64,000 nt of DNA from Raillietiella orientalis (Eukaryota). A model generated the notes under the pieces. It was given only the letters and a program-made list of their open reading frames with translations. It was not told the DNA's origin and did not search any database. Of the stretch, positions 12,570 through 64,000 are shown in pieces. Position 1 is the stretch's first letter. The number at the start of each line of letters is the position of its first letter. The position numbers and the translations under genes are program-made. The stretch lies in contig JAYWIR010000001.1 of NCBI GenBank assembly GCA_036172245.1, positions 8,122,001 to 8,186,000 on the forward strand, read 5' to 3'.

Positions 12570-12700
12570 TCTTGTTGAAATGCACACCTTCCAGAGCCAC
12601 AGTCTCGTGATCCACTCATTTGCCTGCATAGATAGTTCTCGTTCCCAATCATCTTGCTGAATGCCTAGTAAGAACCACATTGACTATGTTCCTCAGCTGG
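11750..12700. repeat. Inverted duplication (about 950 bp) of 31000-31950: LINE 3' end plus cathepsin L flank
   Basis: Mirror ORFs with coordinate sum 43700 (for example 12022-12297 / 31403-31678); apparently identical from 11788 to 12615, mismatched at both edges. Confidence 0.95.
12570..12700 (-). pseudogene. CTSL: Short duplicate fragment of cathepsin L pseudogene (active-site Cys region)
   Basis: Minus strand reads PAEEHSQCGSY*AFS...TVALEGVHFNK, with the same TAC-TAG lesion and the same LINE junction as 31000-31130. Confidence 0.8.
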
Positions 12701-30947: not shown

Positions 30948-31130
30948 TGACGACCTACCTGGATCTGTGGATTGGAGGGAGCAGGGTGACGTGCTGACTC
31001 CAGCTGAGGAACAAGGTGAATGTGGATCTTACTAGGCATTCAGCGAGATAATTGGGAACGAGAACTATCTATGCAGGCAAATGCGTGGATCACGAGACTG
31101 TGGCTCTGGAAGGTGTGCATTTCAACAAGA
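30948..31130 (+). pseudogene. CTSL: Cathepsin L-like (papain C1A) pseudogene, 5' part of mature domain, interrupted by LINE at 31131
   Basis: Reads DDLPGSVDWREQGDVLTPAEEQGECGSY*AFS, then a decayed short intron, then TVALEGVHFNK. Matches C1A consensus LP.SVDWR..G.VTPVK.QG.CGSCWAFS.TGALEG. Catalytic Cys codon is TAC (31030-31032) and the next Trp codon is TAG. Confidence 0.9.
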
Positions 31131-34100: not shown

Positions 34101-36219
34101 CCCGTTCTTGGAAAGCAAGTTCGTCTTGCCGGAAAGGGCATGCATATGGTACTCTTTTCTTGCCCCCTCCTCCCCCCCTTGTTTTTCGTTTGCCCGCCTC
34201 CCTATTTGGTGAAACTCCGGGCGCAGCGTCTCCTACGCAAAGTCCTGTGGTGCGCTGCACGCTCCCGGGTTCGCCTCAAAAATTTGGTGGCGCCACGCCA
34301 GGACTCTGGCTTGGGCATCCTGACCATCCAGAAGACTGAACTTCTCTCCCTATGTAAGAAATTGTGATCTACTCACTGGTGTGCTCCGGCTCGCCATATC
34401 CTCCAGCGATGTGTCGGCAGTGCAGGACTGCTTTCTTTGCTGCCGCGCAACCTTCTCCGGAGAACTGGATTTGGCTACCCTCTCAGGCATCTGTCCTCGT
34501 TGTTGTTAGCCCATTCCTGGATTTCCTACAGACCCTCGAACTGGAATGCTTGGCTGCAGGAGGCTCTGGAGCACTGGACTTCCACTTTGGATGTGCGTCC
34601 AGAGCAACTGCTACGTATAAAGGGCCTCCTACGCAGACCGATAAGAGTTATCCTACAGGACTGGTCGCTTTGGTCCCGAGTAGCCCTCTCACCCCTCGCC
34701 GCAGCGTTGCCTGCTCTCAGGGCAAACAGCAACAACAGCCTACCGGCGAAGTGGGAGTTCTTCTTCTGCAGCATTGCAGGAGAAGAAAGTGTGCTCAGCG
34801 GCTGCAAAACGAGCGTGTTGGTAGAGGCTGCCACTCCTCGCTACCGGGCAAAGGGACTCCTTCGGTGGAGTGAGCTTCTTGGTTTACTCCCCAAAGAACT
34901 CGTGGTCCCTTAATTGTGTGTAAACACCTCCGTGTTCCCTCTTCGATGGAAACAGGATGTTCTGCTATTCCTGAACTGATGATTTCAGTGCAATAAGCGC
35001 AGACACTTGCTTTCCGGGGGAGTTGCCTCCCCGGACTGCCTCAGATGCGGGGCGATAGAATCGCTTCCGCACCTGCTGCTGGACTGCAGTGACTTGCGGG
35101 AGTTATGGCGGAGGCTCGTTTCGGCACTTCGTCGTCCTCAGGATACTGCCATGGACCTACTGCGACGCTTCTTCAGCGAAGACGGACTGAAAAAAGGCGC
35201 TGTCATCGCAACAATCTGTTGCATACGCGCCATCGTGGCGGCACGTCGTAAGCTACAAGGAAGCTCGCAGGGAATGGACGCCACCAGGATAGCCTCCAAC
35301 CTTAACAAGGCAGCTGTCAGGTGGCTTTATCTGCCCAGAAAAGTCTCCAGAGAAGTCGCCATCGTCAAACGGTGCTTCTAGAAAGATGATGAACGTTTGA
35401 AAACAAAGATCCCTCTCCCCACCCTCCCCTGGTTTTTTGTTTGTTTTGTTCCCCTCTCCCACCTTTTCCTTCTTTTTAAAGCCGGCCTGCGTGCCGGTGG
35501 TCCTTCCGGGTTGAACTTTCTGTATGGGCGTCTCTTGCATCTTGAGGGGATGCAGATCCCTTCAAGTTTGTGGTTTGTTTTTTCAGATAAACCTCCCGGC
35601 GTGACCGGATTCAAACCAGAGCGCCTGGACGGTGGCGAACTTCGCCAGCGCGTCCCTTAGTTGGCGGTCTAAGATGTCCGACTGTACGTCGCACATCTCC
35701 ACGACGAATGAATCATCCATGGGGGGCGAGAAGACCTTCCTTCCACGGATGGACTATGGGGTGCGTAGCAAGCGCTGCACAAGTTCCGCGTCCTTGCATC
35801 GCACCTTGAAGTATCCCAAGCCTTTAACGGGCACGATGGCGAGAAGGCCTTCCTCCCGCACGCCTATACGGGTCAGTTCGTGATCGAATTGAACCCGTAG
35901 CGAGCAGAAAGAAGCCCACTCACCTGATAGCGGAAAGCGGGCTTGTAGCTTTTTGCTACGTAAGCGCGCAACTCCGCTTCATCGGGGGGTCCCCCTTTGA
36001 CGGCTGCAGCTGCAGCAACTTCAGCAAAACTCCTCTCTGACGGCGAGGAACACGAAGTGCAGGCGGTCGTCGGTTCCGCCACTGCAGATCCGGACGCTGG
36101 TCCTCCAACTTCCGTTGCTTCTATAGGCGTTCCCATCTTTTTTCAGAAGCACAAGATAGTGGAAACGTCAGGAGTGACGGAAAAACACGCCCGCACACAT
36201 CAAAGAGGTTTCAATGGAG
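31131..36219 (-). mobile_element. L1/Tx1-type LINE with both ends, RT region internally deleted, carrying a nested insertion
   Basis: 16-bp TSD gtgcatttcaacaaga (31115-31130) / gtgcatttcaataaga (36220-36235). ORF1 from ATG 36136 (frameshifted; RRM-like ..VVEMCDVQSDILDRQLRDALAKF..) with two CX2CX4HX4C knuckles CEGCGEQGHCPKKC and CRYCKDKGHDFKNC. APE endonuclease motifs (VACGNVNGL, DLALLQE, CGVAFL, DGRV, RDFNV) at about 32560-32080 join directly to the ORF2 C-terminal ESIPHLFIDC region at about 31950. Confidence 0.92.
33981..35615 (+). mobile_element. 5'-truncated L1/Tx1-type LINE nested antisense in ORF1 of the 31131-36219 element
   Basis: 9-bp TSD ccacagcgc (33972-33980) / ccagagcgc (35616-35624). 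ORF2 C-terminal motifs APRQDSGLGIL and CLRCGAIESLPHLLLDC; T-rich 3' UTR and family terminal hairpin. Confidence 0.9.
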
Positions 36220-36845
36220 GTGCATTTCAATAAGACTTGACAGTTAGAGTGTTCCATAGCGAACAGAATCTCGTGGACTGCTCATGTGATCAGGTGAACT
36301 CTAAATGGAGGATGGAGGATCCGTGGAAAATAGCTTAGCCTACGGCACGCACTACAACAGCATCGACATTCAGGATAGGTATCCCTACAGGGCCGAAATA
36401 GGCAATTACTAGAAGGAATGCTCCGTGCTCGCTCTTGGACGGAAGATGCCGATTCCCTACCAAGTGCATCGGTGCATCTTCGTGGTGATTCAGAATCCTG
36501 CCGGAAGGTGATGCAGAGCAGCTGGATGTGGTCGTGACCTCAGTAGGACCCGTGTGTGTTCCAATAAATGCCAGTCATGCCCCTTTTTCACTTTTACCAT
36601 TCTGGTAACACAGCAGGATTTTAAAATGAAGAAACATTTTTTTTCTACGAACCACTCTGCGCTGAAGATGATCAAGACCAGGGAGTTCTCGTCGTCGGTT
36701 ACGGAAGGGGAAAGGTTTTTGACTACTGGATAGCAGAAAATTCCTGTGGAGTGTACTGGGGGGAACAGGGCAGCACTAGGATAGCCCCGAACAGGGATAA
36801 CCACTGCGGAATCGCAAGCGATCCGGGTTACCCTACCTTTCTTAG
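36220..36845 (+). pseudogene. CTSL: Cathepsin L-like pseudogene, 3' part (continues after LINE insertion)
   Basis: Frames give VHFNKT*, SEQNLVDCS, GGSVENSLAY..IDIQDRYPYRAE, DGRCRF..ILPEGDAEQL..VGPVCVPINASH, FYEPLCAEDDQDQGVLVVGYG..DYWIAENSCGVYWGEQG..NRDNHCGIAS..YP. Stops, frameshifts and decayed splice sites; catalytic His position is Gln (CAG 36679-36681). Confidence 0.92.
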
Positions 36846-37299
36846 TTTTTCAAAAAAACGCAGTGGTGTTGTGCTGAAAGGGTGATGTTGGTTTGGCGCA
36901 CTGGTGATACGGGAGGAAGGACGCGTCGAAATGAGTTTGCTGCAAGGGGAAGGGCAGAAGGTATGGGTTGCTCGCCTCTTCGGCTCGATTCGTTGGATCT
37001 CGGGATGACGTAAACGCAGTTGCGATGTTCCCAAGCATAGCTGCTTACCATCCTGTTTTCTTTGGTCCTCCTTCTTTTGTTCCAAGGCAGCATTCGTAGC
37101 CATGCAGTACCTCGGGATCATTCTGCATGAGTTAGAGGCTAAGAAACAACTCAGTTAATTCACAGGTGCATTGCAAGCAAGATTGCTTCCAAAAAAGCGG
37201 CATAGACGATCCTTGTTTCTGAACCACAAGCGCCTAATCGACGAACACAACGAGGAACACGCTTGTGGCTCAGCGGTTGGTATGATCATTCCCGCGGAC

Positions 37300-38765
37300 C
37301 GCTGTGTCACGTGTGCATCAAGTGAGAACAGTGTAGTATGCATTGCTGTCGCTTAAGGAAGGGAATTGCATTCGTGCTGACGGGCGGAATTTCCAGTTCG
37401 TGCTGAAGGACACCGAAGGATCGGTGTCTCTCTTCTTGAGAGCCATTGCTCGCGCTTGTAACGTGGTGGTTGGTGACGGGCGTTTGATGCGCCGCGCAAC
37501 TGTCTTTGCGCTTGTCCTTGCAACGGATATCAGGTTAGTCGAGTCTTGGACCAGCATACTGCCACGGCAGAGACGGAAAACAATCTCAAAGAGAATGAAG
37601 GTACCTGGAAGAATTTGGGTTCTTCTAAACAGGCAGAGGAAATCCATGTTGCGACCTACGTGCTACGTCTCCAACGCAAGGAAAGTATCCTGACTGGTAG
37701 TGGGACTGAAGTCTTGAAGTGAGTGGCGGCGTGGTAAGGCCAGTACAGAAGAATGAGCGTACACATTCAGCTGAACCTACCCCCGGCGTGCTTTCCATGC
37801 TTCCGTGTAAGTCAAGAGAGGAACGGGTGAGTAGAATTTATTTGCTCGGAGTGCTTTAAAGTCAGCCTCTGATGTCACAAGTCCTGAGATGAGGAGATGG
37901 AGAAATTTCCTTCCCGTTAGCGTGCAGGCGATCGCGTTCGCAGACGACTCTCCGGGGCTGAGGTCTATTTTGGCGGTTACTGTAGGTCGTTCCTGTTGGG
38001 GATTCTCCAGGAAGGAGGCATCCCATGAGCTTGAGCAGGTAACCAGAGAACAACTCCCGAGAACAAGCGTCATGGAAGTGGAGAATCCTAGCGATACGAC
38101 TCCATTTATTACTCGTTCGTTCGCTTACGCACAGCACGTGCCGATGTGGTTCTTCTAGTTTTCCGTGGGGGCACCAATCAGACGCCTCCTGATCTGGTGC
38201 CTTATGAGATCCATCTTTGGAGTAAGGGGGTGCTGTGCAGCGGAGAGACGAAGTGAATGAGACATGGAAGAAGGTGTCAACCACGGATTTAGAGCTAGGG
38301 GTGCTGCGCATCCCACCGCGGAAGATGCCGACAAATCCCATCTACCACTGCGGATCTTTCGCCAACGCTTAAGAGTAAGCCCGTTTGCCAATCGGAGCCT
38401 CTTCCGTCGAGTGGTAATCTGCATGAGCCGAAAGTTCGGCTTCAATGCTGCAGGAGCATCAGCTTCATTTTCATCTTTCTGATGTAAAAGGTGTCTCGGA
38501 TGGTCACACGCTGTGCTCTTAAAAAAGCTAAAGCTTTCCCGAATAGGTCGCTCCAGTAGAAGCTGTTAGGGGTCTGGCAGCAGTCTCTGGATATGCTGGA
38601 ACCTCTGTGTCCGGGAATTCCTGGCGGCAGATGGCATGCGAGTAGGGTCGAATGCCCCCCACTTCGAAGCATTCTCCTTGTATTTGGATCCACAGGGAAT
38701 GCCGTTTCTTGTTACAATCTTGTATGAGTTTTCTATAAATAAATGCCAGGAGCAACCGGGAGAGA
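37300..38765 (+). mobile_element. Old non-LTR retrotransposon relic (RT-like, family-type 3' end)
   Basis: LVLATDI..W..MKVP and QAIAFADD resemble RT motifs; ends ataaatgccaggagcaaccggg, like the LINE terminal motif. Partly duplicated at 57872-59200 (-). Confidence 0.45.
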
Positions 38766-40551: not shown

Positions 40552-42916
40552 GATGGAAATCCTTGGGTTCATCTTTTTTCTTCTGTATGCTGTTTTTCTT
40601 TCAGCTTTTTTTTTAAGAGTTTTCTTTTTTTTGGTTCTCTAAGTACCTCAGAGCCGGTCGCGTGCCTCGCGGTGCACGTGGCTCTTTTTGAACATTAAAC
40701 ACACTGTTTTGTTTCCATGCCTCTCCGCCCGCGGCAACCCGTAGGGGGACGTGTAATTCTTCAGAATAGGGGGCACCCCGGGATTGGGGCCCGCCCTATG
40801 AATCCAGGAAGCCCTTTGGGGCAGAGGTAGGCCCCGAGTCCGTTTGAAGGACTTGTGTGCCCCTCGTCGCGATGGAGGACTCGGCCTCCTCACTCTGGAG
40901 CGCCTCGAACTGCAGCTGCAGTTCAGGACTCTAGCTCTAGTAGCGAAGCTATGGAGCACCAGCTGGTGCGAGCCTGCACGACGCCTGGTTCAGCGAGCTA
41001 GCGGCTGCGCGGGACTGTCTACCTTCCTAGCGCGCCGCAAACGCCGGTACCTGTTCCACTGCGGACTGGCACTTCGGCAAGTGGCGAAGCTGACCAGAAC
41101 GAACACCTGGATCTCCTGCCGGCCCGCGAACGGTACGTCCTGGCTGCAGGAAAGCCTTCGCACGTGGGCCCAGATCGAGGAAGCGAGCCCGGAGTTGCGG
41201 CAGCGAATGCTGCTCTCCTATCACAAGAACCGCTCGCTGCAGGACATCATCGTGCAGCCCACCTTGAGTGCGTGGGCTGAGAGGACCTCCCTTGTCGCGG
41301 CTCTGTCCCACCTCAGGGAGCACCTGGGCAGTAGCCAGCCGGCGAAATGGGAAGTCCAGTATCTCTGGAAGAGAGAAAGAGCAAGGTGGTTGGACCACGG
41401 GCCAGTTGACAGACGCTGCGACCCCAAGTGCCCCACCGAAAGGACTATTGCGCTGAGGCGTGCTGCTGAGCATCCCCATGGATGTACTCGAGTGGCCCCC
41501 GGTGCTGAAGACTACCCGGGCCCTCCCCCTGAAGTGGCAGGAGTCGGCGTTCCTGGTGTTGCACTGGGGACTCCCCAGCAACGCCCGCCGTTCTCACTGG
41601 ACGAGGGGGGCTGTAGACCCAAATTGTGTCAGGTGCGGGGAACGAGAAACCCTTTCACACCTGCTTCTTGACTGTGTTGCCCTCCGGCCCCTGTGGTTGC
41701 GTTTCGCAACGGCCCTAGGGGCACCCACGATCAACCTTAGAGACGTTCTGACGCGCCTCTTTGTGCGTGACGCCCTTCCGCCTGCCGCAGCCCTTGTAGC
41801 CCTCTGCTTCCTACGAGGGACTGTGGCGGCCTGGAGCACCGCCACTGGTGGACCGAACGACAGAGACATCATCTGCTCCGCCCTGCGCTTCCTGAGGACG
41901 GCAGCCAGATGGTCCCATTTGGGACGTATGCGGACTGAACTTGCCGGCATCCTGGTAAGGATGTAGAGGACGACCCCAGAGGAACGTGATCCCTTCCCCA
42001 ACCCCTCCCTGCTTTTGTAAATAGTGTTTTCTCTTTGTTTTTATTTGTCCTTTTCCTTTCCGCTGCCGAGTCGAACTCGCCAGCCTGCATGCTGGCTACT
42101 CGGCAAGTTCAGATTCTTCATTAGAACATTTTTTAGGACGCTGTAGGGGCAATAGCCCTACACTTGCTTGTTTGTTTTTACTAGAAAAATAAACGCCCCG
42201 GCGCACCCGGGTGTAAAAGGAAGGGCTCGGAGTCCGTTCCTCTCACGCACCTCCCACCCTGGTTGTCTCCGAAGGAGAACCCCGAAGGGAATCTCCTGCC
42301 TCATTCGCTCCGGAGGGATACCCTCCGTAATGGGGGTGGTCCTCTCCATTTCAACTTCTCCGAAGGGAACCCGGAAAGGATCCACTTGTAGGAATTTCTT
42401 CTCCGGAGGGAACCCGCAAGGGAACCGCTCCTGTTCACTCCTCTGAAGAGAATCCCGAAGGGGCGCTGCAGCTTCCCACAGGGGAATCGCTCTCGCTTGC
42501 TTCCTTGTGCACTCTGTGAAGGGGTGACGACTCGGAGGGTCCTCCCCGCAACAGGGAGGGTCTGCTCCTTTGAACAACTGGAGAGGTGCCCGTGAGGGCT
42601 TCTGCTCCATCTTGAAACCGGAGGGGTCCCCCAGTGGGGGCTCCGCTCTCCGTTGTACGACCGGAGGGGGAACTCCCCACTCCTTTATTCCTTGGAAGAC
42701 CCGAAGGTCAATTTCCCATTGTTGCGGCGTTCATCGGGGGCCTCCGGCTTAATCCACCGTCGGTGCCACGCCCGAATGATTAGGCCAACCAGCGCCGCTG
42801 CAGGAGAAACTCGGAATCCGACGACGCAGTGGCGTCAGAGTTTCTGCCGAAGTATTCGAACCCGCGACGCATGGTGTCACACGCGGAAGCCTTAACCACA
42901 AGGCCTGCGACGCGGG
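40552..42916 (-). mobile_element. tRNA-derived SINE-like element copy split by LINE 40812-42217
   Basis: 40552-40811 matches 49082-49370 and 42218-42916 matches 49365-49994; B-box at 42852-42863. Confidence 0.82.
40812..42217 (+). mobile_element. 5'-truncated L1/Tx1 LINE inserted into a SINE copy
   Basis: TSD aggaag (40806-40811 / 42218-42223); the uninterrupted SINE site atccaggaagggctcgg is seen at 49361. CAPRRDGGLGL, CVRCGERETLSHLLLDC; least decayed copy. Confidence 0.93.
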
Positions 42917-49994: not shown

Positions 49995-51579
49995 TCTCGT
50001 GGTTGCTTGCTGCCACTCAACAAGTGTCCCGAACCATGCGTCCAGAACCTCCGCGCCAGGACTCCAGCAACGAAAAGCACTTGGAGGTTCCGGTGGCTTC
50101 CTGACGAACAGGAGCGTCTTGGAGGAGCGAACGTTCTTTCTGCGCTGCATGGCATGCGGGAAGAATCCTCGGTTTCCTAGCTTCATGTATTTGGAGGCTA
50201 CCGCGCGGACGGGACATGACGAAAAGGTCATCGGAGACTTCATGCAGTGGCTCTCAGGCTAAGGTAGCACAGAAAAAGGGTGCCCCGTCCTTCATTGACA
50301 CCGTGGAGCGCTGCATTGGCCCCGAGCTACCTCCGAACCATAGTGCATGGCGACGCTACAGAAAGGTGCTGGCGACTCTATATGCACGAAGGGAGCCAGT
50401 GATGGAGCCGAAACGGAAGTGCCCAAGTGCAGCGACCAGCCGTGACGACGGCGTTCGGCACCCAGGTACCTCCTGGATTACGAGCGGTTATGGTCGTAGA
50501 AGGACGGCAGGGAGGTGGTGAAATTGCTACCTGCTCATGCCCTCCAGGCCGTCAGAGGCGCGTCCAACGTGGACGCCGGGAATCGCACTTTTCTATCCTA
50601 CCTGCAAGAACAATGGAGAAAAAGGAAGCGAGGCGACTTCCAAGGGAAAGAAACGGGCACGAGTCCCCACTCCTCCTTTCCTTTCCAAGAACAATCGCCG
50701 TCGTGCGGCTGACAGAAGAGGACATCAATCACTCAAAAAAGAGGTTTCCTGACAGCTGCACTAATTGAAATTCCCTCTGAAGCGTAAAGGAATGCTCTGG
50801 ATTGCAGCCGCCTACACACACTAATCTATCACAGCTTGCGGAAAAATTAAAAAACCGAAAAATGGAAATTCTAGCCTGAATCCTAGATTTTCCATCTGCC
50901 TCACTCGAGCTCGCATCAGAGGGAAAGTCCACCAACCCATAAAACAGCCAGCGTCCCGCGGGAGGCGCAGTTTCCCTTGCTTCTCTCGCAGCCCCAAGAT
51001 CAACGGAGAGCAGGTAGCTTCCAGAAGTGGCGCAACTTTTTGTTTCGTTCTACGGAGGGCAGTCAGCACTGTCCCTGGCGCTCCAGGCGCTTCCGGCTCC
51101 TCGCTGTCGGTTTCCAGAGCTGAAACGCCAGAATGGGTCGCTTCTTGCGTTGCGCGGCGAAGGCGCAGGGGTCCTGATGCGTTGCGCGCGCCAGGGGCAC
51201 AGTCGCCTCATTCCGCTTCTTCCATGCGGTCCCACCGCTGCAGCGAAACGGATGCCATCTGTGCGCGCGCCTTGGGACCGCACTTTTCCGTGGATCACCG
51301 GGAAAAAAACGTAGCAGCTGGTCGTTGGAATTCTGGAAAATGTCCGACCCGTTCGTCGCGCATCCTCGGTCTGCGGTACGCAGTATTGCGCGCATTGCTC
51401 GACTTGGCAGCGCTCCCTGTTTCCGTAGATGGACCCAACCCGTGGCTAGCCGACTTAAGCGGCGCGCGCTCTTGCGCACCCTCCATTGTCGCTGCGCTCC
51501 GCAGCGCCACCGATCGTTTATTCGTTTTCTAGCGAACCCCTTCCCGACTACGGCAGATATCATCCCAGGATCACGAACG

Positions 51580-54500
51580 ATGGAGGCACTCTCGGTAACA
51601 CCCTGTCTACTGGTATGGGTGCTCAGCTCCGTCTGCATGTTGGAGATGCACAGCAGGTAAGTAAGGACACTTACAGAGACGGTTCCACCTTTGGGATCGT
51701 CGACCTCTGCAGCGCGCTTCAAAAGCTGGCGCTCCCTGGTGTTTGGATTTGCGCTTCCTCCCTTCCGAACGCAACCTACTCCGCCTCCGACAGCCTCCCT
51801 TTCCCGGCACTGCAATCTTCGGCAGCTCCTGTGTTCACAAGCGTGCGCTGAAAAAGTGTGCGCAGTGAGAGTTTTGGAAGAAAGGAGCAAAACCGCCGTC
51901 GACAGCCCGACCCGCCCCTTTCGGCATCCCAAAGAGGCAGCTCGTGCTCTGCTGATCGGAAAGCGCGTGCGCCAGCAATGCACCGTCTCGTGTCCGTGCG
52001 GTCGACATGTGGCGCCACGTGGAACCATGTACCACGATGGTAGCCTCCCGCTTCCAGCGCACGGCAATTTGATCACTCTCACAAGGACACGCTACTCCGC
52101 ACACGGATCCAAGAAGTGATGGACCGTGGGGCGGAAGGGAGCTCACGGTCACACTGTAGATGCAGAGAACAAACACTCCTGAGGCGTCGCATTCTCTTCG
52201 TGCGCGTTCGTGCAAGGAGCGTCTCCGGTTGTGCTTCATCTGGTCGCCACGAGGTGCATCTTCAAGCCAGGATCGCATAGTCAGAACGAGGTCGGATGCC
52301 TAACGGGACGTTCGCGTTGCGGTCACATGCTGATTCCTTCGCGCTCGGCGCTCTTCGCATCGGCTGCGGCATTCGAAGGTTTCCGAAAAGAGCAGGCGAA
52401 CACGGGACTCGTGACGCTATCAGTTGGCGTTCGCATGCAGCAAACGCCGCCTCACAGCATATGTCAAAGCGTCATAGGGGTCATCTAGTGCAGCCGGGTT
52501 AGCGCGGCGGCTGGGGTGTAGCTCGTTTCCGCGTTTCTTGCTGGAGGTATCGATGGTGACTGTTTCTTGTTTCAGAGGTTGTCTTGCGCTTGCTGGTTCC
52601 ACGGTGACGATGAAGGATAGAAATCTCGTGACCATGGATATCCACCAAAACTTAGGTGGGGTAAGTGAAAAGTTCCTGGACGGCTGTCTATCTTACATCA
52701 CGAAGACTCCATCAGGGATCACTCGCATTTCTCCACTCCAACCCCAATTCGCGCACATAATTTCGCGGTTGCGTGTCCACATCCCCCCACCTAGTAGTGG
52801 TGAGTCTCCCAGTAAAGTTGCTGATTTGGGGTTCGGCAAGTTGCTGCAACCGAACTCTTCAGCTCACTGAAGCTGGGGCTGGTGGACAGAAACGCCGCTG
52901 GGTGTTGTCAACAAAAATATTCTTCCGCGCTTTCATATGCTTGAACGCTGTTCGACTTCCGCGCAATCGAAAAGGGCCAGTTCGTGTTTAGGATTTCCTT
53001 TGGGTTGATTTCTTTTCACTGCTCCTCTTCCATCATCCTCTTGTTTTTGGGTTCGTCAAGTGCTAAAGAACCGTTCGCCTCCTCAAGGAGCACTCACGAA
53101 GCACATAGAGACACCGCCGACGTCATCGACGGGTGCGTGTGACTCCAACCTAGTGGTGGCAACCTCGCAAACTTCATCGTATGAATCCAGCAAAGCTACT
53201 CAGCATGGGGTCCGTTCCGCTTACGCTTAAGAGAGAATTATGAAAAGGTTTCTCGGGTCGGATGTGTCTGAGGGGAACCCCAGAAGGAACCACCTCTTCT
53301 TTCTTCCCTTCCGAAGGCTTCTCCGAAGGAGGAAAGGCACTCCTTGTTTCTTATTTAAAGAAAACTCAGCAATGATCCAGTCTAACAGCTTCCCCTCCTT
53401 CGGAGGGAACCCGCAGAGGAATGGCTCCTTGTCTTGCCCTTCTGTAAAGAACCCCGAAAACGCGCCACCAAACTTCTCGAAAGGACGCTTCCCGAAGGAA
53501 TCATTCATTTTGTTCAGACTCTCTAGAACTGTTGTCTCTCCAGAAGACACGCCCGAGTGCAGCAAACGCCTCTGCAGCAGAGGATATTCACCGAATCCAT
53601 GGTTCGCGATGGAGGGTTGCCCCAGGGAATGGAGGAAGACCTCATTTTTACAACTAGGAAGGGAATTGACTTTTTGATCCCAGCACGCACCCCAGAAGAT
53701 TCTAATTCATGCCAGACAACGTTTTCCAATCCCACCAGTGCCGCTGCGCCTGGATGGGCCGACCGAGGTCATCCTGCGCAGGGAACACGAAACCCACGAC
53801 GCACCTATTTTCAGCGACGTGGGGATTCGAACCCCCAACGTTGGGTGCCACGCGTGAAGACTTCGGTCGCATGGCCGCCAACACGAGCGATTTCCTTGGA
53901 CGTGCCCTCTGCCGCCAGCCTCGCGCGGGATTCTTCGTTTGCACGACTTGCGCCTCTCTCTTGGGCGTGCATCAGGCGCGCGTTGGTACTGCAGTCCTCG
54001 CACCAGTACAGGGAAGAAAGGATGCGCTGTCCCGACGCGTTCGCTGCACTTCGCTAGACACCAGAGTGCGCTCGTGAATCGTATTTTCCCGGTGAGCCCG
54101 CGACTTGGGCAGGCTCTGCTTGGAGTTCCCTCGGCAGTCCGAATCGCGCAGCGGCACGGAAACCGTTTGCGGTCGATCGCGGTTCCTTCCGGAAGCAGCG
54201 CGCAGTCCTCAGCCTGATGACTTCGCCCGGGGAGCCTTCGCGTGAGCCGTATGGCTTCTGCGTGACCGCATATCCTTCTGCACGATCGGGGGGCTTCCGG
54301 GAAACGAATCCAGCAACCGCGCAGCCTCCCAGCCCCGTTCCAACAAAGCAAGTCATGACGTTTTTCCAGGTCCTGTTCGTGTCGATGGAACTCGGGGAAC
54401 CTCAGCAGTTGATGCTGCCGTCAGTAAACAGTTACAAGAACGAAGTGTGGTTCCTCTCGAGTTCATACATCATTGGGAAAAATAGTGAGTTCCCCGTAAA

Positions 54501-56361
54501 AATTGTGGGGGAGAGCAAAAACTACGTTCTTCGTTCCAGAGAACCGTCGTCAGTATAATCCCAAACTGTCCAAGGGAAGCAAGGTCACCAAAACAGAATT
54601 CAATTACAAAGACGACATGGTTTCTGTATCAAGATCTTCGATATATGGATTCAAGGCTGTCGACAAACTGAAGGTAAGGAAAGAGCGCGCGAGCGCTTGA
54701 AACACGGGGTCGGTGACGATAAGGAGCACTGATGGATGGCCTGCGGCGGCTGTGTCTTAGCTGAATTTCGTAAAGCATCCACGAAATTTGCGTGGAATGG
54801 CTCTCCTTCACGGACAAGCACCGTGGGAGGCAGGCACGGGCGGCACAGTGCTGCGCAGTCTTCGCGACGGAGTTTCCCCGCTTCCGCAGTCCTCTTGTCC
54901 TCACGTCCTCTTTCTCGCCGCTCTTTTCTCTGGGCATGGAAGGAAAACACGCACATCTTCCGCCTAGCCACCTCCTGGCGTTGGTTGGGTGCCGCTCCTT
55001 CCGTTTACGTCACGCACGCTCTCCTTTCCCACCGTCGTCCTTACCCACCCAACTCCACAGTGGGTTGCGGGGCATCCTCGTTCGAGGCTTCGGCTGGAAC
55101 ACTCAGAGATCGAAGAAAACCAGCTCTTCCTCACTGCCTTGCGAAGTGTTTCGTGCTGGAAACCCCTGCTCCCAACCAAATGCGCTGCACTGACCCATAA
55201 CGCTCCGAAGAGGAACGAAATGTAGCTGCTACCCACCCTCCAGGCTCTCGAGTGTATGCGCAATTTACCCCTACAGCCGGATGTGCTGTAGGAGTGGTCG
55301 GGAGTGAAGAAGTTCCCTGGAATGAGACAAACGCTTCTAAGCTCCTTCTTTCCAGATCGCGAATATCTCCGTTCCGAATGTGGAATTTGGGATGGTCACC
55401 AGCATATCCCCCCCTTTTTCGGTTCCTGCCGACGGTATGCTTGGACTGGGCTTTCCCGTTCCTGGCAATTATTCGCTGCTTAAACGCATCATCGAAGCAG
55501 GAAAGCTCCAGCCTGAATATTCTTTTTGCCTGCCAAGGTACGATGCAGTTATGTAGGGGCAGGCTGAACTGCCATCAACCCTGCTTCTCGATCCTTTTCG
55601 ACACCATGAATGCCATCTCTCTCAAACTGAGTTGACAATTTAAGAACGAAAGTGTGCTCGAAGATTTGCTGCTGCATTTCTGCAAACAGGATAAGGAGAG
55701 CGTTCTATTCCGCAGGAACCCTTCCTCTAAAGGATGGCTTCACTTCGGCAAAAGCAACCCTGATCTGGGTCAAGGAAATTTCATCTACCACCAGTTGACC
55801 GATACATTGGACTTCCATTGGAAGGTCGGCATCAATAAGTAAGTCCGGAATTTCCCTGGTTCCACTCACCTCCTCCAGGGTACAATTCGAGAAGTTGACT
55901 CTGTGTGAGAAAGGTTGCGTGGGAAAAGTGGTTATGGGACGTCCGCTTGGTGGTCCTCAAAGCCAGGTTTCAGCGATTCTAAAGCATCTGGGAACAAACC
56001 TGGAAGAACAAGGATATTTTTCCACACAGGTGAGCTCACAGCTTTTGCGACGCTCTTCCGCAAATTCTTCTGAAGGTGCCATGTCAGTCTGCGTTCCCTC
56101 CGCTGACGTTCTCAATTGACAGTTCCGTCTACACACTGGAGGAGAGGCACTACATTAAAAAAGTGAGTTGACCTGACTAGTGTTCCCGTATCTCCCAAGC
56201 TTGCGCTTGTTATGAAGACCGGCGGCGTCTGCACTGTGGAAATCAGGATGTTGCCAGAGAACGAGAATGTGTGGCACTTGGGAGGTGGATTCCTCTCGAG
56301 GTACTGCGCCTCCTTAGACTACGGAAGAAATAGGATTGGTTTCGCGGAACAGAAAGAATAG
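51580..56361 (+). CDS. Pepsin-family (peptidase A1, cathepsin D/E-like fold) protein, 365 aa, 9 exons, probably secreted, both catalytic aspartates lost (probable pseudo-protease)
   Basis: Manual splice model with all GT-AG introns and matching phases: 51580-51656, 52576-52660, 54370-54484, 54540-54673, 55356-55537, 55716-55838, 55879-56029, 56076-56162, 56218-56361 (1098 nt, no internal stop, ends TAG). Hydrophobic N-terminus MEALSVTPCLLVWVLSSVC. A1 landmarks: MELGEPQQ..VWFLS, VEFG..DGMLGLGFP, YSFCLPRNP..GWLHFG, HWKV, LTLCEKGC, PPLTFSI..YTL, VWHLGGGFLSRY..LDYGRNRIGFA. Exons 3-9 are strongly supported by homology; exons 1-2 by splice signals, phase and signal-peptide character only. Confidence 0.88.
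53230..53890 (-). mobile_element. Diverged SINE-like copy in intron 2 of the pepsin-like gene
   Basis: Minus-strand gggggttcgaatcccc T-arm, then gcgtcgtgggtttc..caggatgacctcggtcggcc..ggcactggtgg and a gaag/gggaaccc body. Confidence 0.68.
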
Positions 56362-59300
56362 CAGCTTGGAAAAGGGACTGAATTTCCTGCGTGGACCACG
56401 GGAACCGCAAATGCACTGTACGCGTGCGTCCATCGCGAGAAATAAAGACTGCACATCTCTAGACTTCTCGTTACACGATGTTCCCGCCAACTAGCCGGAA
56501 GGGGTGTTTCGGTGTGCAAGAAGAGTGCGGCTTAGTGGCAACGGTCTCCTCGCATGATATGAAGCAATGGGGGATCCATTCCCACCCGGGAAAGAGTCTA
56601 TGCCGTGTGCTTGGGTCGTTGCTTCTGAGTCCTCGGTTCAATGTGACTCTGCGTAGCCCACAAGCTTTCAATGCGGCGTTTGTGGGATTCGGAAAGCAGA
56701 TGACCTCCAGGGGTGCCAGGATTCCTTCCAGGAGCCAAGAACGTGGTTCGATGCGTGGTCACCTTCAAGAACAGGCGCTCCATAGTGTACCACGCAGGGG
56801 ACAGATATCGTTTATCTTAAAAGTGTCAGAAGAGCGTTGCTTTCTTCGAGGGGCGGATTATTCAGATAAGCTTTCCTTCGGCGTTCCCTTCAGAGGAGAT
56901 AACGGAATGCGGTATTCATGCGGGTTCTCTTCTCATGGGACATTCGAGAAGTGGAATCTTTGATGCTTTCCTCTCTACAAAAGACAAGGGATGGCCTCTC
57001 CTTAGGAACCCTTTTGGAGAGAAGAGAGACGTTTCTCCAGGTGTTCCGTTTGGAGACAGTTACGACGATGGTTCTCTTCAGAAGTCTCTCCCAAGGGTAA
57101 AAGGAGCAAAGAGGACCTTTGCCCACTTCCAATAGCAAAATTGCAGCCATCTCATTCACAGAGGATCTCTCATGGTGTGTGGAAGGAGTGTTGTGCCTCG
57201 AGAAACATCTGAAGGGACGTTCCAGGTGCGGAAAGAACGGGTAGACGACTGACTGAAAGACGTGCTGTCCAACTGCATCTTGAGGCTAAGTCCTCTGTGG
57301 ACAGTTACTTGATAGGTAACGTGTGGCTGGGTCGCCTCACGTTCTGCGGCTTCACAACTTCTGGAACGAGATGGATATTTCTGAGTTTCTGTGGTGCTCA
57401 GAGCCTTCCTATTGATGGACGGGGCGCGACTGTGCCATTTTGCCTGTAACGCTAAGTCCTCCCTCTCCGAATCATTCGGTACTTCCTTCACGGACCCTGA
57501 GAGTAGCATGCAACTGCAGTCGCCTCGAAGACTTTTGCAACCACACCTCTTGCAGCAGTGGCATAACCTGTTTTCCTCGTTTTCGTCCAGATCTCCATCC
57601 TGCCAACCTCCAAAAAGGATGTCAGTAGCGAAAGAAGCTCTTTTTATCCCTCCCTTCCCCTTCAGTTTGGAGCCATCATGGCGTCAACGACTGTTGCTGT
57701 CTCGCATCCGCCTTCTGAAAAGAAACGGTTGAACTTTTTTTTTCCAGCTGGTTTCTTGTCAATGAAGGGTATCCAGGGACTCGTTCATCGCACCCTAGGA
57801 ACCACGAAATCCGCGTGACGCTTTCTACATTCGGGGCATAGCACTTCCTCAGCATTGAAACTGCTGAACGAATCTGCCTCCAGGAATTCTCGGACACAGA
57901 GGTTCCAGCATATCCAGAGACTGCTGCCAGACCCCTAACAGCTTCTACTGGAGCGACCTATTCGGGAAAGCTTTAGCTTTTTTAAGAGCACAGCGTGTGA
58001 CCATCCGAGACACCTTTTACATCAGAAAGATGAAAATGAAGCTGATGCTCCTGCAGCATTGAAGCCGAACTTTCGGCTCATGCAGATTACCACTCGACGG
58101 AAGAGGCTCCGATTGGCAAACGGGCTTACTCTTAAGCGTTGGCGAAAGATCCGCAGTGGTAGATGGGATTTGTCGGCATCTTCCGCGGTGGGATGCGCAG
58201 CACCCCTAGCTCTAAATCCGTGGTTGACACCTTCTTCCATGTCTCATTCACTTCGTCTCTCCGCTGCACAGCACCCCCTTACTCCAAAGATGGATCTCAT
58301 AAGGCACCAGATCAGGAGGCGTCTGATTGGTGCCCCCACGGAAAACTAGAAGAACCACATCGGCACGTGCTGTGCGTAAGCGAACGAACGAGTAATAAAT
58401 GGAGTCGTATCGCTAGGATTCTCCACTTCCATGACGCTTGTTCTCGGGAGTTGTTCTCTGGTTACCTGCTCAAGCTCATGGGATGCCTCCTTCCTGGAGA
58501 ATCCCCAACAGGAACGACCTACAGTAACCGCCAAAATAGACCTCAGCCCCGGAGAGTCGTCTGCGAACGCGATCGCCTGCACGCTAACGGGAAGGAAATT
58601 TCTCCATCTCCTCATCTCAGGACTTGTGACATCAGAGGCTGACTTTAAAGCACTCCGAGCAAATAAATTCTACTCACCCGTTCCTCTCTTGACTTACACG
58701 GAAGCATGGAAAGCACGCCGGGGGTAGGTTCAGCTGAATGTGTACGCTCATTCTTCTGTACTGGCCTTACCACGCCGCCACTCACTTCAAGACTTCAGTC
58801 CCACTACCAGTCAGGATACTTTCCTTGCGTTGGAGACGTAGCACGTAGGTCGCAACATGGATTTCCTCTGCCTGTTTAGAAGAACCCAAATTCTTCCAGG
58901 TACCTTCATTCTCTTTGAGATTGTTTTCCGTCTCTGCCGTGGCAGTATGCTGGTCCAAGACTCGACTAACCTGATATCCGTTGCAAGGACAAGCGCAAAG
59001 ACAGTTGCGCGGCGCATCAAACGCCCGTCACCAACCACCACGTTACAAGCGCGAGCAATGGCTCTCAAGAAGAGAGACACCGATCCTTCGGTGTCCTTCA
59101 GCACGAACTGGAAATTCCGCCCGTCAGCACGAATGCAATTCCCTTCCTTAAGCGACAGCAATGCATACTACACTGTTCTCACTTGATGCACACGTGACAC
59201 AGCGGTCCGCGGGAATGATCATACCAACCGCTGAGCCACAAGCGTGTTCCTCGTTGTGTTCGTCGATTAGGCGCTTGTGGTTCAGAAACAAGGATCGTCT

Positions 59301-59658
59301 ATGCCGCTTTTTTGGAAGCAATCTTGCTTGCAATGCACCTGTGAATTAACTGAGTTGTTTCTTAGCCTCTAACTCATGCAGAATGATCCCGAGGTACTGC
59401 ATGGCTACGAATGCTGCCTTGGAACAAAAGAAGGAGGACCAAAGAAAACAGGATGGTAAGCAGCTATGCTTGGGAACATCGCAACTGCGTTTACGTCATC
59501 CCGAGATCCAACGAATCGAGCCGAAGAGGCGAGCAACCCATACCTTCTGCCCTTCCCCTTGCAGCAAACTCATTTCGACGCGTCCTTCCTCCCGTATCAC
59601 CAGTGCGCCAAACCAACATCACCCTTTCAGCACAACACCACTGCGTTTTTTTGAAAAA

Positions 59659-60284
59659 CTAAGAAAGGTAGGGTAACCCGGATCGCTTGCGATTCCGCAG
59701 TGGTTATCCCTGTTCGGGGCTATCCTAGTGCTGCCCTGTTCCCCCCAGTACACTCCACAGGAATTTTCTGCTATCCAGTAGTCAAAAACCTTTCCCCTTC
59801 CGTAACCGACGACGAGAACTCCCTGGTCTTGATCATCTTCAGCGCAGAGTGGTTCGTAGAAAAAAAATGTTTCTTCATTTTAAAATCCTGCTGTGTTACC
59901 AGAATGGTAAAAGTGAAAAAGGGGCATGACTGGCATTTATTGGAACACACACGGGTCCTACTGAGGTCACGACCACATCCAGCTGCTCTGCATCACCTTC
60001 CGGCAGGATTCTGAATCACCACGAAGATGCACCGATGCACTTGGTAGGGAATCGGCATCTTCCGTCCAAGAGCGAGCACGGAGCATTCCTTCTAGTAATT
60101 GCCTATTTCGGCCCTGTAGGGATACCTATCCTGAATGTCGATGCTGTTGTAGTGCGTGCCGTAGGCTAAGCTATTTTCCACGGATCCTCCATCCTCCATT
60201 TAGAGTTCACCTGATCACATGAGCAGTCCACGAGATTCTGTTCGCTATGGAACACTCTAACTGTCAAGTCTTATTGAAATGCAC
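59659..60284 (-). pseudogene. CTSL: Duplicate of cathepsin L pseudogene 3' part within inverted repeat arm
   Basis: Reverse complement of 36220-36845 (mirror relation x + x' = 96504). Confidence 0.9.
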
Positions 60285-63200
60285 CTCCATTGAAACCTCT
60301 TTGATGTGTGCGGGCGTGTTTTTCCGTCACTCCTGACGTTTCCACTATCTTGTGCTTCTGAAAAAAGATGGGAACGCCTATAGAAGCAACGGAAGTTGGA
60401 GGACCAGCGTCCGGATCTGCAGTGGCGGAACCGACGACCGCCTGCACTTCGTGTTCCTCGCCGTCAGAGAGGAGTTTTGCTGAAGTTGCTGCAGCTGCAG
60501 CCGTCAAAGGGGGACCCCCCGATGAAGCGGAGTTGCGCGCTTACGTAGCAAAAAGCTACAAGCCCGCTTTCCGCTATCAGGTGAGTGGGCTTCTTTCTGC
60601 TCGCTACGGGTTCAATTCGATCACGAACTGACCCGTATAGGCGTGCGGGAGGAAGGCCTTCTCGCCATCGTGCCCGTTAAAGGCTTGGGATACTTCAAGG
60701 TGCGATGCAAGGACGCGGAACTTGTGCAGCGCTTGCTACGCACCCCATAGTCCATCCGTGGAAGGAAGGTCTTCTCGCCCCCCATGGATGATTCATTCGT
60801 CGTGGAGATGTGCGACGTACAGTCGGACATCTTAGACCGCCAACTAAGGGACGCGCTGGCGAAGTTCGCCACCGTCCAGGCGCTCTGGTTTGAATCCGGT
60901 CACGCCGGGAGGTTTATCTGAAAAAACAAACCACAAACTTGAAGGGATCTGCATCCCCTCAAGATGCAAGAGACGCCCATACAGAAAGTTCAACCCGGAA
61001 GGACCACCGGCACGCAGGCCGGCTTTAAAAAGAAGGAAAAGGTGGGAGAGGGGAACAAAACAAACAAAAAACCAGGGGAGGGTGGGGAGAGGGATCTTTG
61101 TTTTCAAACGTTCATCATCTTTCTAGAAGCACCGTTTGACGATGGCGACTTCTCTGGAGACTTTTCTGGGCAGATAAAGCCACCTGACAGCTGCCTTGTT
61201 AAGGTTGGAGGCTATCCTGGTGGCGTCCATTCCCTGCGAGCTTCCTTGTAGCTTACGACGTGCCGCCACGATGGCGCGTATGCAACAGATTGTTGCGATG
61301 ACAGCGCCTTTTTTCAGTCCGTCTTCGCTGAAGAAGCGTCGCAGTAGGTCCATGGCAGTATCCTGAGGACGACGAAGTGCCGAAACGAGCCTCCGCCATA
61401 ACTCCCGCAAGTCACTGCAGTCCAGCAGCAGGTGCGGAAGCGATTCTATCGCCCCGCATCTGAGGCAGTCCGGGGAGGCAACTCCCCCGGAAAGCAAGTG
61501 TCTGCGCTTATTGCACTGAAATCATCAGTTCAGGAATAGCAGAACATCCTGTTTCCATCGAAGAGGGAACACGGAGGTGTTTACACACAATTAAGGGACC
61601 ACGAGTTCTTTGGGGAGTAAACCAAGAAGCTCACTCCACCGAAGGAGTCCCTTTGCCCGGTAGCGAGGAGTGGCAGCCTCTACCAACACGCTCGTTTTGC
61701 AGCCGCTGAGCACACTTTCTTCTCCTGCAATGCTGCAGAAGAAGAACTCCCACTTCGCCGGTAGGCTGTTGTTGCTGTTTGCCCTGAGAGCAGGCAACGC
61801 TGCGGCGAGGGGTGAGAGGGCTACTCGGGACCAAAGCGACCAGTCCTGTAGGATAACTCTTATCGGTCTGCGTAGGAGGCCCTTTATACGTAGCAGTTGC
61901 TCTGGACGCACATCCAAAGTGGAAGTCCAGTGCTCCAGAGCCTCCTGCAGCCAAGCATTCCAGTTCGAGGGTCTGTAGGAAATCCAGGAATGGGCTAACA
62001 ACAACGAGGACAGATGCCTGAGAGGGTAGCCAAATCCAGTTCTCCGGAGAAGGTTGCGCGGCAGCAAAGAAAGCAGTCCTGCACTGCCGACACATCGCTG
62101 GAGGATATGGCGAGCCGGAGCACACCAGTGAGTAGATCACAATTTCTTACATAGGGAGAGAAGTTCAGTCTTCTGGATGGTCAGGATGCCCAAGCCAGAG
62201 TCCTGGCGTGGCGCCACCAAATTTTTGAGGCGAACCCGGGAGCGTGCAGCGCACCACAGGACTTTGCGTAGGAGACGCTGCGCCCGGAGTTTCACCAAAT
62301 AGGGAGGCGGGCAAACGAAAAACAAGGGGGGGAGGAGGGGGCAAGAAAAGAGTACCATATGCATGCCCTTTCCGGCAAGACGAACTTGCTTTCCAAGAAC
62401 GGGCCGAGAGCCATCTCTGCCTTTTGAAGACAGGCCGACCACGCCTCTGAAGAGCAGAAGTCGCCCAACGGAACGCCAAGCTATTTGAAGTACCTGACCG
62501 TGCGGGTCCCCAGGACGATCCACGCGCTGTGGAGGGTTGGGTTCGGAGCACCCTCAAGGACTTTCGCTCCCTACACAGAGGTATCGCGGCGGTTCGGGTC
62601 ACTATGGCGAACCGCCGATCGCTACCCGCGAGGCTAAGGGTGAACAACACGGTCGTTCACCTTTGGTACGCTGGCAAGCCTCGCGCGTGCGAGGGATGCG
62701 GTGAACAGGGGCATTGTCCCAAAAAATGCCCCTCAGGGAAATGCCGGTATTGCAAGGACAAGGGACACGATTTCAAAAATTGTCCTAAACTTGCGAGGAA
62801 GAAGGCATCCGCAAATCTAAAACGCGGAAAAGAAATCGCGGAAGAAAAAAAGAACGTCGCGAACAAAATAAAAGACATTCGGAAGAAGTTTGGCAAGAAA
62901 GCGGAAGCAGAAACGAGGAAAGAGCCACCGTCCTCTCCCGCCCCGAAACGACGCGCGTCCCAGAGAAGGCCCAGCAACTGTCGCGGAAGACACACGCGGA
63001 AGCGCGGTGCAACGGCCGAACAAGACAAAAGCCGATGGACCCTCGGCCTCCGGGGTAGTAGATGTAGGAGCAGCATCGAAGTGACGGGAAAACCGCTGCC
63101 CCTACTGCGCCCTCTCTTCCGATGGTCACCACGCCAGAAAAGAAGGGTGCATACGCCCGGGCGACGAAGGCCGGGAAACGGCGATCCGTCGCGAGCTGCC

Positions 63201-64000
63201 CCGCCAAGGGAAGCAATCAGCCGTGCCAACGCACCCTCGACGACCGCTGCCCTACCCCGACTGCTGGGGAACAGGGGACGACCCGAGGAACAGGCGGCGA
63301 CAGCTTCAAAGACCTTGTCCCCACGCTTCCTAGTCGCGCATGCAGCGCCTCGCGCGGTGGTGATGAAAACTAAGGAAATTCCCGAGCCGAAAGGCGCGGA
63401 AGTTTCCGAGGAATGCGGCGAGGGATGGACGGTTGTGGTAAGAAGGAAGAACAAAATTCCAAAAAATTCTCCACAAAGTCCGTCCGTCACGCTCTGCAGA
63501 GCAAGGAAACGACGCATCAGGCAAAACACATGCTGGAAGCCTCCACTTGCAGTGGCGAAAGCCGCCGTCGACACTGCGCGTAGTGCGAAAACTGCCCAAC
63601 GAAAGGGCAAGCAGAAATCCGCTAGCCCTCAGGATGCCACGAGGCCGGTCAAGCGCTTGTCCATCCCACGCCGGTCCGATTGCGACACGGAATACGACTC
63701 TGCCGCCGAGAGGCGTATCACCCGGTCGGAAGCGAATGCTCGGCGCGCGAAAGCGTATAGGCGCGATACGCACTGCGCTAAAGAGCTCGGGCAGTTGTCC
63801 GAAGTAGGAACGCTGGCCTTCTTGCAGCACGGTGGAGGCCGGTGGCACGACCGCGCCCTCCAGCCACTTGTGCTGCTTGCCGTCAGCTCACCGGAGAAAG
63901 CGAGCAAGAAGCCGCCATCTTCGCTGCCGTGATGCGGGGAATCGCGTCTTCTCGTCGTCTGTCGGTCGCGTGTGGGAACGTGAACGGTCTGCAGAACGAC
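60285..64000 (+). mobile_element. Duplicate of LINE 5' half (5' UTR, zinc-knuckle ORF1, start of APE), cut by window edge
   Basis: Mirror of 32504-36219; ORF 62529-63932 is identical in translation to 32572-33975. Confidence 0.9.
60889..62523 (-). mobile_element. Duplicate of nested 5'-truncated LINE
   Basis: Mirror of 33981-35615; ORF 61123-61497 is identical to 35007-35381. Confidence 0.9.

Follow-up and report, generated by a model that had tools for sequence, protein, structure and literature searches.

An intact nine-exon pepsin-fold gene of Raillietiella orientalis with both catalytic aspartates replaced: a candidate pseudo-protease

A pepsin-fold gene that keeps an open reading frame after the loss of its catalytic residues raises the question of whether it is decaying or is kept for another use. 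The gene in question belongs by homology to family A1 of the aspartic peptidases and is called the A1-like gene here. It lies on the + strand at 51580-56361 of a 64,000-nt stretch of Raillietiella orientalis DNA (assembly GCA_036172245.1, contig JAYWIR010000001.1, positions 8,122,001 to 8,186,000), and the whole of this stretch is called the window. The gene had been noticed in a first-pass annotation of the window and was followed up by computational analysis. Splicing gave an intact reading frame, alignment related its product to A1 proteins over both lobes, and both catalytic Asp columns were found to hold other residues. We consider it probable that the gene is live and maintained, and that it encodes a non-catalytic, probably secreted, pepsin-fold binding protein.

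Splicing by coordinates kept the phase through nine exons and eight introns (Table 1) and reproduced the stop-free, GT-AG-bordered frame reported in the first-pass annotation. The spliced coding sequence (CDS) consisted of 1116 nt, encoding 371 amino acids (aa) followed by one terminal TAG, with 0 internal stops; the length of 365 aa given earlier could not be reproduced. GT..AG borders were present at 8/8 introns, 7/8 donors were GTAAG or GTGAG, and the introns measured 919, 1709, 55, 682, 178, 40, 46, and 37 nt. The five other frames of the spliced CDS contained 9-15 stops per frame, and the chance of 371 stop-free codons was about 3.5e-5, calculated from the window-wide stop-codon frequency of 0.0273. 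The GC content at codon positions 1/2/3 was 0.495/0.384/0.573, and coding-type base periodicity was present. The theoretical isoelectric point (pI) of the protein was 8.9. For exon 6, an acceptor at 55690 was tried and rejected: it lost the phase and gave 1142 nt with 6 stops, and of 55690 and 55716 only the latter restored the frame. Nine exons are also typical of animal A1 genes, in which exons 3 and 7 carry the two active-site motifs, and the present gene matches that layout.

Single exons were used as database queries, while the spliced 371-aa model was compared only locally, by phmmer and MAFFT, with A1 proteins. Exon 9 was also searched exhaustively with HMMER against 1.84 billion representatives and gave 4 matches at E<=0.001. 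Three of them (P0001, P0002, and P0004) were ordinary A1 proteins, 40-44% identical to exon 9, and P0001 was cathepsin D/E-like according to the Atlas; the fourth, P0003, was a repeat protein and was set aside as chance. P0001, P0004, and the two pepsin domains of P0002 made up the reference set of four A1 domains. In P0002, which comes from outside the window, the pepsin domains stand in tandem and the first is half-disabled, with Ala at the column of the second catalytic Asp.

Phmmer analysis of the spliced model gave 66.9 bits to P0004 over residues 49-370, 80.2 bits to P0001 over residues 95-368, and 62.5 and 40.3 bits to the two domains of P0002, with no alignment gaps at the exon junctions. 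Because the reference proteins had been picked through exon 9, the comparison was rerun with exons 1-8 alone, which scored 27-53 bits against a best value of 2.5 bits among 100 shuffles; homology therefore appears to span the whole model. In the MAFFT alignment, the model was 23-28% identical to the A1 domains, while these were 30-46% identical among themselves. The phmmer scores likewise showed a long branch, with 43-84 bits from the model to the A1 domains and 144-295 bits from one A1 domain to another. By these alignments, the predicted protein is a true A1 homologue (pepsin fold; Pfam Asp, PF00026) across both lobes.

Single exons were too short to carry the A1 case. A Pfam Asp scan, which the first-pass annotation had proposed, was run per exon; exon 9 passed the cut-off of 19.9 with 20.9 bits (profile positions 273-314 of 315), and exon 5, with 15.8 bits, fell short of it (profile positions 80-115). 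The best Pfam score of exon 5 was to TAXi_N (PF14543), at 21.2 bits and under the cut-off of 30; no other exon matched that family, and TAXi_C (PF14541) had no match in the scan of single exons. In the PDB, exon 9 retrieved 43 sequences at E<=10, 42 of them named as A1 peptidases or zymogens, all matched C-terminally, and the best match was gastricsin 1avf (E=0.0011). Exon 7 retrieved renin 5mlg_A, at E=1.4 only, with VVMG opposite VDTG. Exon 5 gave 7 matches, namely five designed armadillo-repeat proteins, DegQ, and one A1 pepsinogen (E=0.56).

At the 5' end, the 11-residue Kyte-Doolittle mean peaked at 2.4 across residues 4-11 (exon 1), and A1 homology started at residue 49 (exon 2; phmmer alignment to P0004). 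The hydrophobic N-terminus was separated from the A1-homologous part by only about 20 residues, in line with the very short propeptide described earlier. An A1 zymogen carries a signal peptide and then a propeptide of about 40-50 residues. The A1-like model lacked this propeptide feature: exon 2 alone matched neither A1_Propeptide (PF07966) nor any other Pfam family. It is improbable that the gene is real and its model partly wrong, with the start at an in-frame ATG at about 52554 within the exon-2 open reading frame (ORF), an unseen upstream exon or other borders, and a product that is perhaps not secreted or has a longer pro-part. Such an error would fit the start of homology support at residue 49 of exon 2, with exon 1 left outside it, the differing length counts (365 and 371 aa), and the competing AG before exon 6. 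A tblastn search with the three A1 proteins, which found no propeptide-like piece near the gene, is also counted on that side. However, exons 3-9 are fixed by the gap-free alignment over each junction, and a change at the 5' end would restore neither catalytic Asp.

Residue placement at the active site was taken from the local phmmer and MAFFT alignments with the three A1 proteins. The NSY and VMG motifs were found exactly where the first-pass annotation had put them, with N74 of NSY on the Asp column of the first DTG (N-lobe) and V257 of VMG on the Asp column of the second DTG/DSG (C-lobe); the full-model alignment thus bore out a pepsin-fold homologue with its catalytic Asp residues replaced. 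We take these columns to be Asp32 and Asp215 of pepsin, and the flap Tyr to be pepsin Tyr75. The pattern D[TS]G did not occur anywhere in the 371-aa protein. Neither catalytic column held an acidic residue, and the closest one, Glu79, aligned with the Asn of the motif.

The other parts of the catalytic apparatus were changed as well. The invariant flap Tyr column held Val122 after a 5-residue insertion, a placement that is alignment-dependent and that agrees with the longer flap stretch noted before. At the column past the second motif's Gly (Thr218), Arg260 was found instead of Thr, the Gly34 column held Tyr76, and the second fireman's-grip Thr was also replaced. Alignment confirmed that WILGD reads WHLGG and that the first canonical Cys pair is absent, while Cys248/252 and Cys292/329 were aligned with the cysteines of pairs 2 and 3. 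The N-lobe Asp, the C-lobe Asp, and the flap Tyr, which are required for an active A1 peptidase, were all three missing. Judged by the aligned columns, the predicted protein cannot work by the A1 aspartic peptidase mechanism.

Two extra cysteines replaced aromatic residues. Cys354 (about 56308-56310) stood on a column where all four A1 domains have Tyr, and Cys195 (about 55528-55530) on a column that is Tyr in 2/4. These two columns presumably lie on neighbouring central-sheet strands in pepsins, and the two cysteines might form a new disulfide.

Of the 56 invariant columns of the four A1 domains, 33 were kept in the A1-like protein. By zone, the N-lobe psi-loop kept 2/10, the flap 1/4, the C-lobe psi-loop 2/3, the WILGD stretch 3/4, and the rest of the protein 25/35. 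The N-lobe psi-loop and flap together kept 3/14 columns against 30/42 in the remainder (Fisher p=0.0015, zones chosen post hoc), and the comparison of all four active-site zones with the columns elsewhere gave p=0.024, also with zones chosen post hoc. As aligned, the losses of invariant residues cluster in the active-site loops, mostly in the N-lobe psi-loop and flap.

A peptidase that still works with an unconventional catalytic centre has been argued for histo-aspartic protease (HAP) and the tick protein BYC, which cleave substrates with one of the two Asp residues missing (PMC6345952, PMC11313796). For the present protein such an activity is very improbable. Both Asp residues are gone here and no Glu has taken either catalytic column, the flap Tyr is absent, and proteins without the C-lobe Asp lost activity, according to one source (PMC11313796).

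The window also holds a cathepsin L-like relic (Table 1), against which the state of the A1-like gene can be set. The search with the relic gave 28/42 candidates at E<=0.001, among them named nematode and insect cathepsins L at about 48-60% identity, and its closest named relatives were those of Ascaris (60%), Steinernema (55%), termite (53%), and Lepidoptera (about 50%). In its last exon, the relic was 50-60% identical to active enzymes. The relic is a pseudogene: in its Cys25 motif Tyr is followed by a stop, the frame is interrupted by more stops at about 36336, 36399, and 36486 and shifted near 36590, and Gln stands for the catalytic His.

It seems rather unlikely that the A1-like gene is itself a silent pseudogene, that is, a decaying member of a protease cluster whose function is lost while its frame happens still to be unbroken. 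No catalytic element is left, the cathepsin L neighbour is dead, and the surroundings are debris of long interspersed nuclear elements (LINEs) and duplications; moreover, the protein collections searched with exons 5 and 9 gave no relative or annotated copy. All of this would suit a pseudogene. However, the gene is more diverged from A1 proteins (23-28% identity) than the best exon of the relic is from its relatives (50-60%), yet it had 0 stops, 0 frameshifts, and 8/8 canonical introns, with no lesion in 1113 coding nt and 16 splice dinucleotides, whereas the less diverged relic has several; this argues that the ORF has been maintained. The losses of invariant residues were uneven and mostly confined to the catalytic loops, while glycines, cysteines, core strands, and the C-terminal strand were kept, which suggests that the fold was retained for another use. 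The coding-type base periodicity also favours maintenance. The first-pass claim of a maintained gene thus gained indirect support, from the intact frame and splice sites at such low identity, the zoned losses, and the decayed relic, and on these grounds we infer maintenance by selection.

Relatives of the gene were searched for in protein collections and in the window. In a word-indexed search of longer proteins only, exon 5 gave 37 candidates, none at E<=0.01, and exon 9 gave 18 candidates, none at E<=10, and no copy of the A1-like protein was found. Among representatives of about 15 billion proteins, no relative reached 50% identity to exon 9; the A1-like gene is therefore absent from those protein sets. 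A second A1 copy was not found in the window by tblastn with the spliced model (next best E=0.43), and tblastn with the three A1 proteins found no spare A1 exons there, with nothing at E<0.1 beyond exons 5, 7, and 9. A narrow literature search of open-access text found no described A1 homologue without both Asp residues.

Several points weigh against a maintained, secreted binding protein. Exon 1 is the least certain exon, with no homology support, and its signal peptide is a guess. In Pfam, 6/8 scanned exons taken singly had no A1 match; in the PDB, exon 3 alone and exon 6 alone had 0 matches, and exon 4 alone matched no A1 protein but two homoserine dehydrogenases only, which were taken as chance. 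The assignment of these exons depends on local alignment to three proteins picked through exon 9. The zones of the Fisher tests were defined after the alignment was inspected. With Tyr at the Gly34 column and Arg at that of Thr218, the cleft may be filled, and a cleft-binding role is therefore not assured. The hunt for orthologues and paralogues called for in the first-pass annotation returned none from the exon-5 and exon-9 protein searches and none by tblastn in the window, which left neither a ratio of nonsynonymous to synonymous substitution rates (dN/dS) nor a demonstration of the age of the changes. The case for maintenance draws on the DNA of one locus, and a setting rich in transposable elements beside a dead protease gene also suits a dying member of a birth-and-death family.

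With these points taken into account, a maintained non-catalytic protein remains the probable reading, with the following as its most likely history. A cathepsin D/E-like gene of an invertebrate animal would have been duplicated, and the copy would have lost catalysis long ago. Asn and Val have taken the places of the catalytic Asp residues, and replacement extends to the second fireman's-grip Thr, the flap Tyr, and the greater part of the active-site loop of the N-lobe. The bilobal scaffold, the Cys columns of 2/3 canonical disulfides, and the C-terminal signature have been retained, and the gene would since have been kept for a non-catalytic role. The product would most probably be secreted and bind a peptide, a protein, or a small ligand via the remodelled cleft or a new surface, and would act as a carrier or blocker, like RmPAP with haemoglobin or TAXI with xylanase. 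The secreted binding role is suggested because of the hydrophobic N-terminus and the precedent of RmPAP, Lma-p54, TAXI, EDGP, and basic 7S globulin.

The predicted protein was compared with known systems. It resembles ordinary cathepsin D/E-like A1 proteins (P0001, P0004, gastricsin 1avf, cathepsin D, and renin) in its colinear mature domain, Cys pairs 2 and 3, and C-terminal signature, but it is without the DTG/DSG in both lobes and the flap Tyr of ordinary A1 peptidases. Ruminant pregnancy-associated glycoproteins (PAGs) are secreted A1 members that Xie et al. reportedly described in 1991 as inactive. PAG genes have nine exons. Unlike PAGs, which are mammalian and close to pepsins, the present gene has introns of 37-55 nt, and its neighbouring relic is nearest to nematode and insect cathepsins. 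Bla g 2 keeps both Asp residues, with the triads altered. Secreted A1 proteins of cockroaches or insects that have no protease activity include Bla g 2, Per a 2, and Lma-p54, and a binding role was proposed for Lma-p54 (PMC9541408). The present protein, compared with these by description only, is likewise an A1 homologue and is predicted to be secreted and to have no protease activity.

The tick protein RmPAP (Rhipicephalus microplus) offers the best model of the way in which the present protein might work. RmPAP has one catalytic Asp missing, is inactive, and binds haemoglobin uncut with a dissociation constant of 3.35e-8 M; it consists of 361 aa with an N-terminal signal peptide and the mature part directly after it, and has a pI of 5.76 (PMC6345952). 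Both are pepsin-family proteins of similar size (361 and 371 aa) with a catalytic Asp missing. However, only the second Asp is lost in RmPAP, while the present protein has lost both Asp residues and, in addition, the flap Tyr and the larger part of the N-lobe loop. Compared by description only, RmPAP is similar to other tick aspartic peptidases, whereas the present protein has no close relative and a basic pI.

The TAXI-I xylanase inhibitor, carrot EDGP, and soybean basic 7S globulin are plant pepsin-fold non-enzymes, re-used for inhibition or binding, that lost the C-lobe Asp (PMC11313796). The present protein shares with them the pepsin fold, the loss of catalysis, and TAXi_N as the best Pfam score of exon 5. 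They are plant proteins, however, and the TAXI/EDGP family takes in proteins with TAXi_N and TAXi_C above their cut-offs; with TAXi_N under its cut-off and no TAXi_C match, the present gene falls outside it. The examples of pseudo-aspartic peptidases considered here from two sources lost one Asp only, that of the C-lobe where the lobe was named (PMC11313796, PMC6345952). By its aligned sequence, the present gene belongs among the pseudo-aspartic peptidases (A1 fold, disabled centre, intact gene), which form a functional class and not a clade. The class is already known; the present gene differs from those examples, as aligned, in the loss of both Asp residues and the flap Tyr.

The surroundings of the A1-like gene are mostly LINE debris, and the window is rich in transposable elements and poor in genes. 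The first-pass statement that all other coding sequence recognised in the window is decayed was true of the cathepsin L relic and of the LINE reverse transcriptase and endonuclease pieces, but a 493-aa frame resembling LINE ORF1 is still open; it is the only long intact frame among the fragmentary LINE pieces. This frame had no match in Pfam, and the Atlas gave weak arthropod leads for it, with scores of 0.83-0.88 (below the 0.9 mark). Together with the cathepsin matches of the relic and the short introns of the A1-like gene, these leads point to an invertebrate animal as the probable source of the DNA. Pfam analysis of 148/374 frames of 70-129 aa (25-31, 38.4-51.5, and 56.2-61.2 kb) gave one match, to Peptidase_C1. 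The two pieces of the cathepsin relic are separated by about 5 kb with LINE frames.

Two inverted repeats were found. The larger one (32504-38632 against 57872-64000) covers at least 6129 nt at 99.97% identity, its right arm being cut by the window end, and may reflect either a recent inverted duplication or an error of assembly. Its arms carry LINE frames together with the 3' part of the relic, and its 19-kb spacer contains the A1-like gene, at a distance of 1.5 kb from the right arm. The smaller one (11746-12700 against 31000-31953; 955 nt, 98.5% identity) starts within the cathepsin exon fragment, which leaves a third partial copy of the junction near 12700. Window repeats inside the long introns of the A1-like gene were considered and set aside, as a blastn comparison of 51000-57000 with the window yielded a single match, of 61 nt at 77%. 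Tandem Repeats Finder (TRF) found one small array, outside the gene, and the Rfam and tRNA scans of the window gave 0 hits each.

Table 1. Features of the A1-like gene and of its surroundings in the window.
Feature	Position	Strand	Remarks
Exon 1	51580..51656	+	ATG and hydrophobic N-terminus, candidate signal peptide; donor CAG/gtaagt; in phase with exon 2
Exon 2	52576..52660	+	short pro-like segment, then start of A1 N-lobe; acceptor tttcag, donor GGG/gtaagt
Exon 3	54370..54484	+	N-lobe psi-loop; NSY (54427-54435) in place of first DTG; Trp81 and Ser84 kept
Exon 4	54540..54673	+	flap region; 5-residue insertion, without flap Tyr
Exon 5	55356..55537	+	conserved DG-x-LGLG core strand region; D163, G164, and G167 kept
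Exon 6	55716..55838	+	C-lobe start; acceptor ttccgcag/G; alignment gap-free over junction
Exon 7	55879..56029	+	C-lobe psi-loop; VMG (55931-55939) for second DTG/DSG; Cys248-x3-Cys252 pair
Exon 8	56076..56162	+	C-lobe, Cys292 on invariant Cys column; in phase, AG and GT sites
Exon 9	56200..56361	+	C-terminal A1 signature: WHLGG for WILGD, final G-F-A strand, stop TAG
Candidate polyadenylation signal AATAAA	56441..56446	+	80 nt past stop; pattern scan, consensus match only
RVT_1 (LINE)	10203-10790		
Exo_endo_phos-like LINE frame	31736-32722	-	under Pfam cut-off
zf-RVT (LINE)	41457-41966		under Pfam cut-off
493-aa open frame, probably LINE ORF1	62451-63932; 32572-34053	+; -	two CCHC knuckles
Cathepsin L-like relic	30952-31044 and 36243-36837	+	copy at 59670-60261 (-), right repeat arm
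Peptidase_C1	59622-59879	-	51.8 bits; belongs to cathepsin L-like relic

The A1-like gene is a candidate pseudo-protease, probably one more of the kind known in ticks, cockroaches, ruminants, and plants, and it opens no long-standing question. More tentatively, and in our view unlikely, it could be the first member to be seen of an animal family that evolves fast, is restricted to one lineage, and consists of secreted pepsin-fold proteins. In such a family the whole catalytic apparatus (both Asp residues, one fireman's-grip Thr, and the flap Tyr) would have been replaced, and a filled cleft or a new basic surface would serve a new binding or inhibitor function. If so, it would be an animal counterpart of the plant TAXI/EDGP inhibitors and not a one-residue knock-out like RmPAP. 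The dead cathepsin L neighbour is a ready internal control for studies of selection. Pepsin-fold pseudo-proteases are a known class with few characterised members. If the present gene is maintained, it is a more extreme case than the losses of one Asp, with both Asp residues and the flap Tyr gone and the scaffold kept, and its protein could reveal the parts of the fold on which a non-catalytic role depends.

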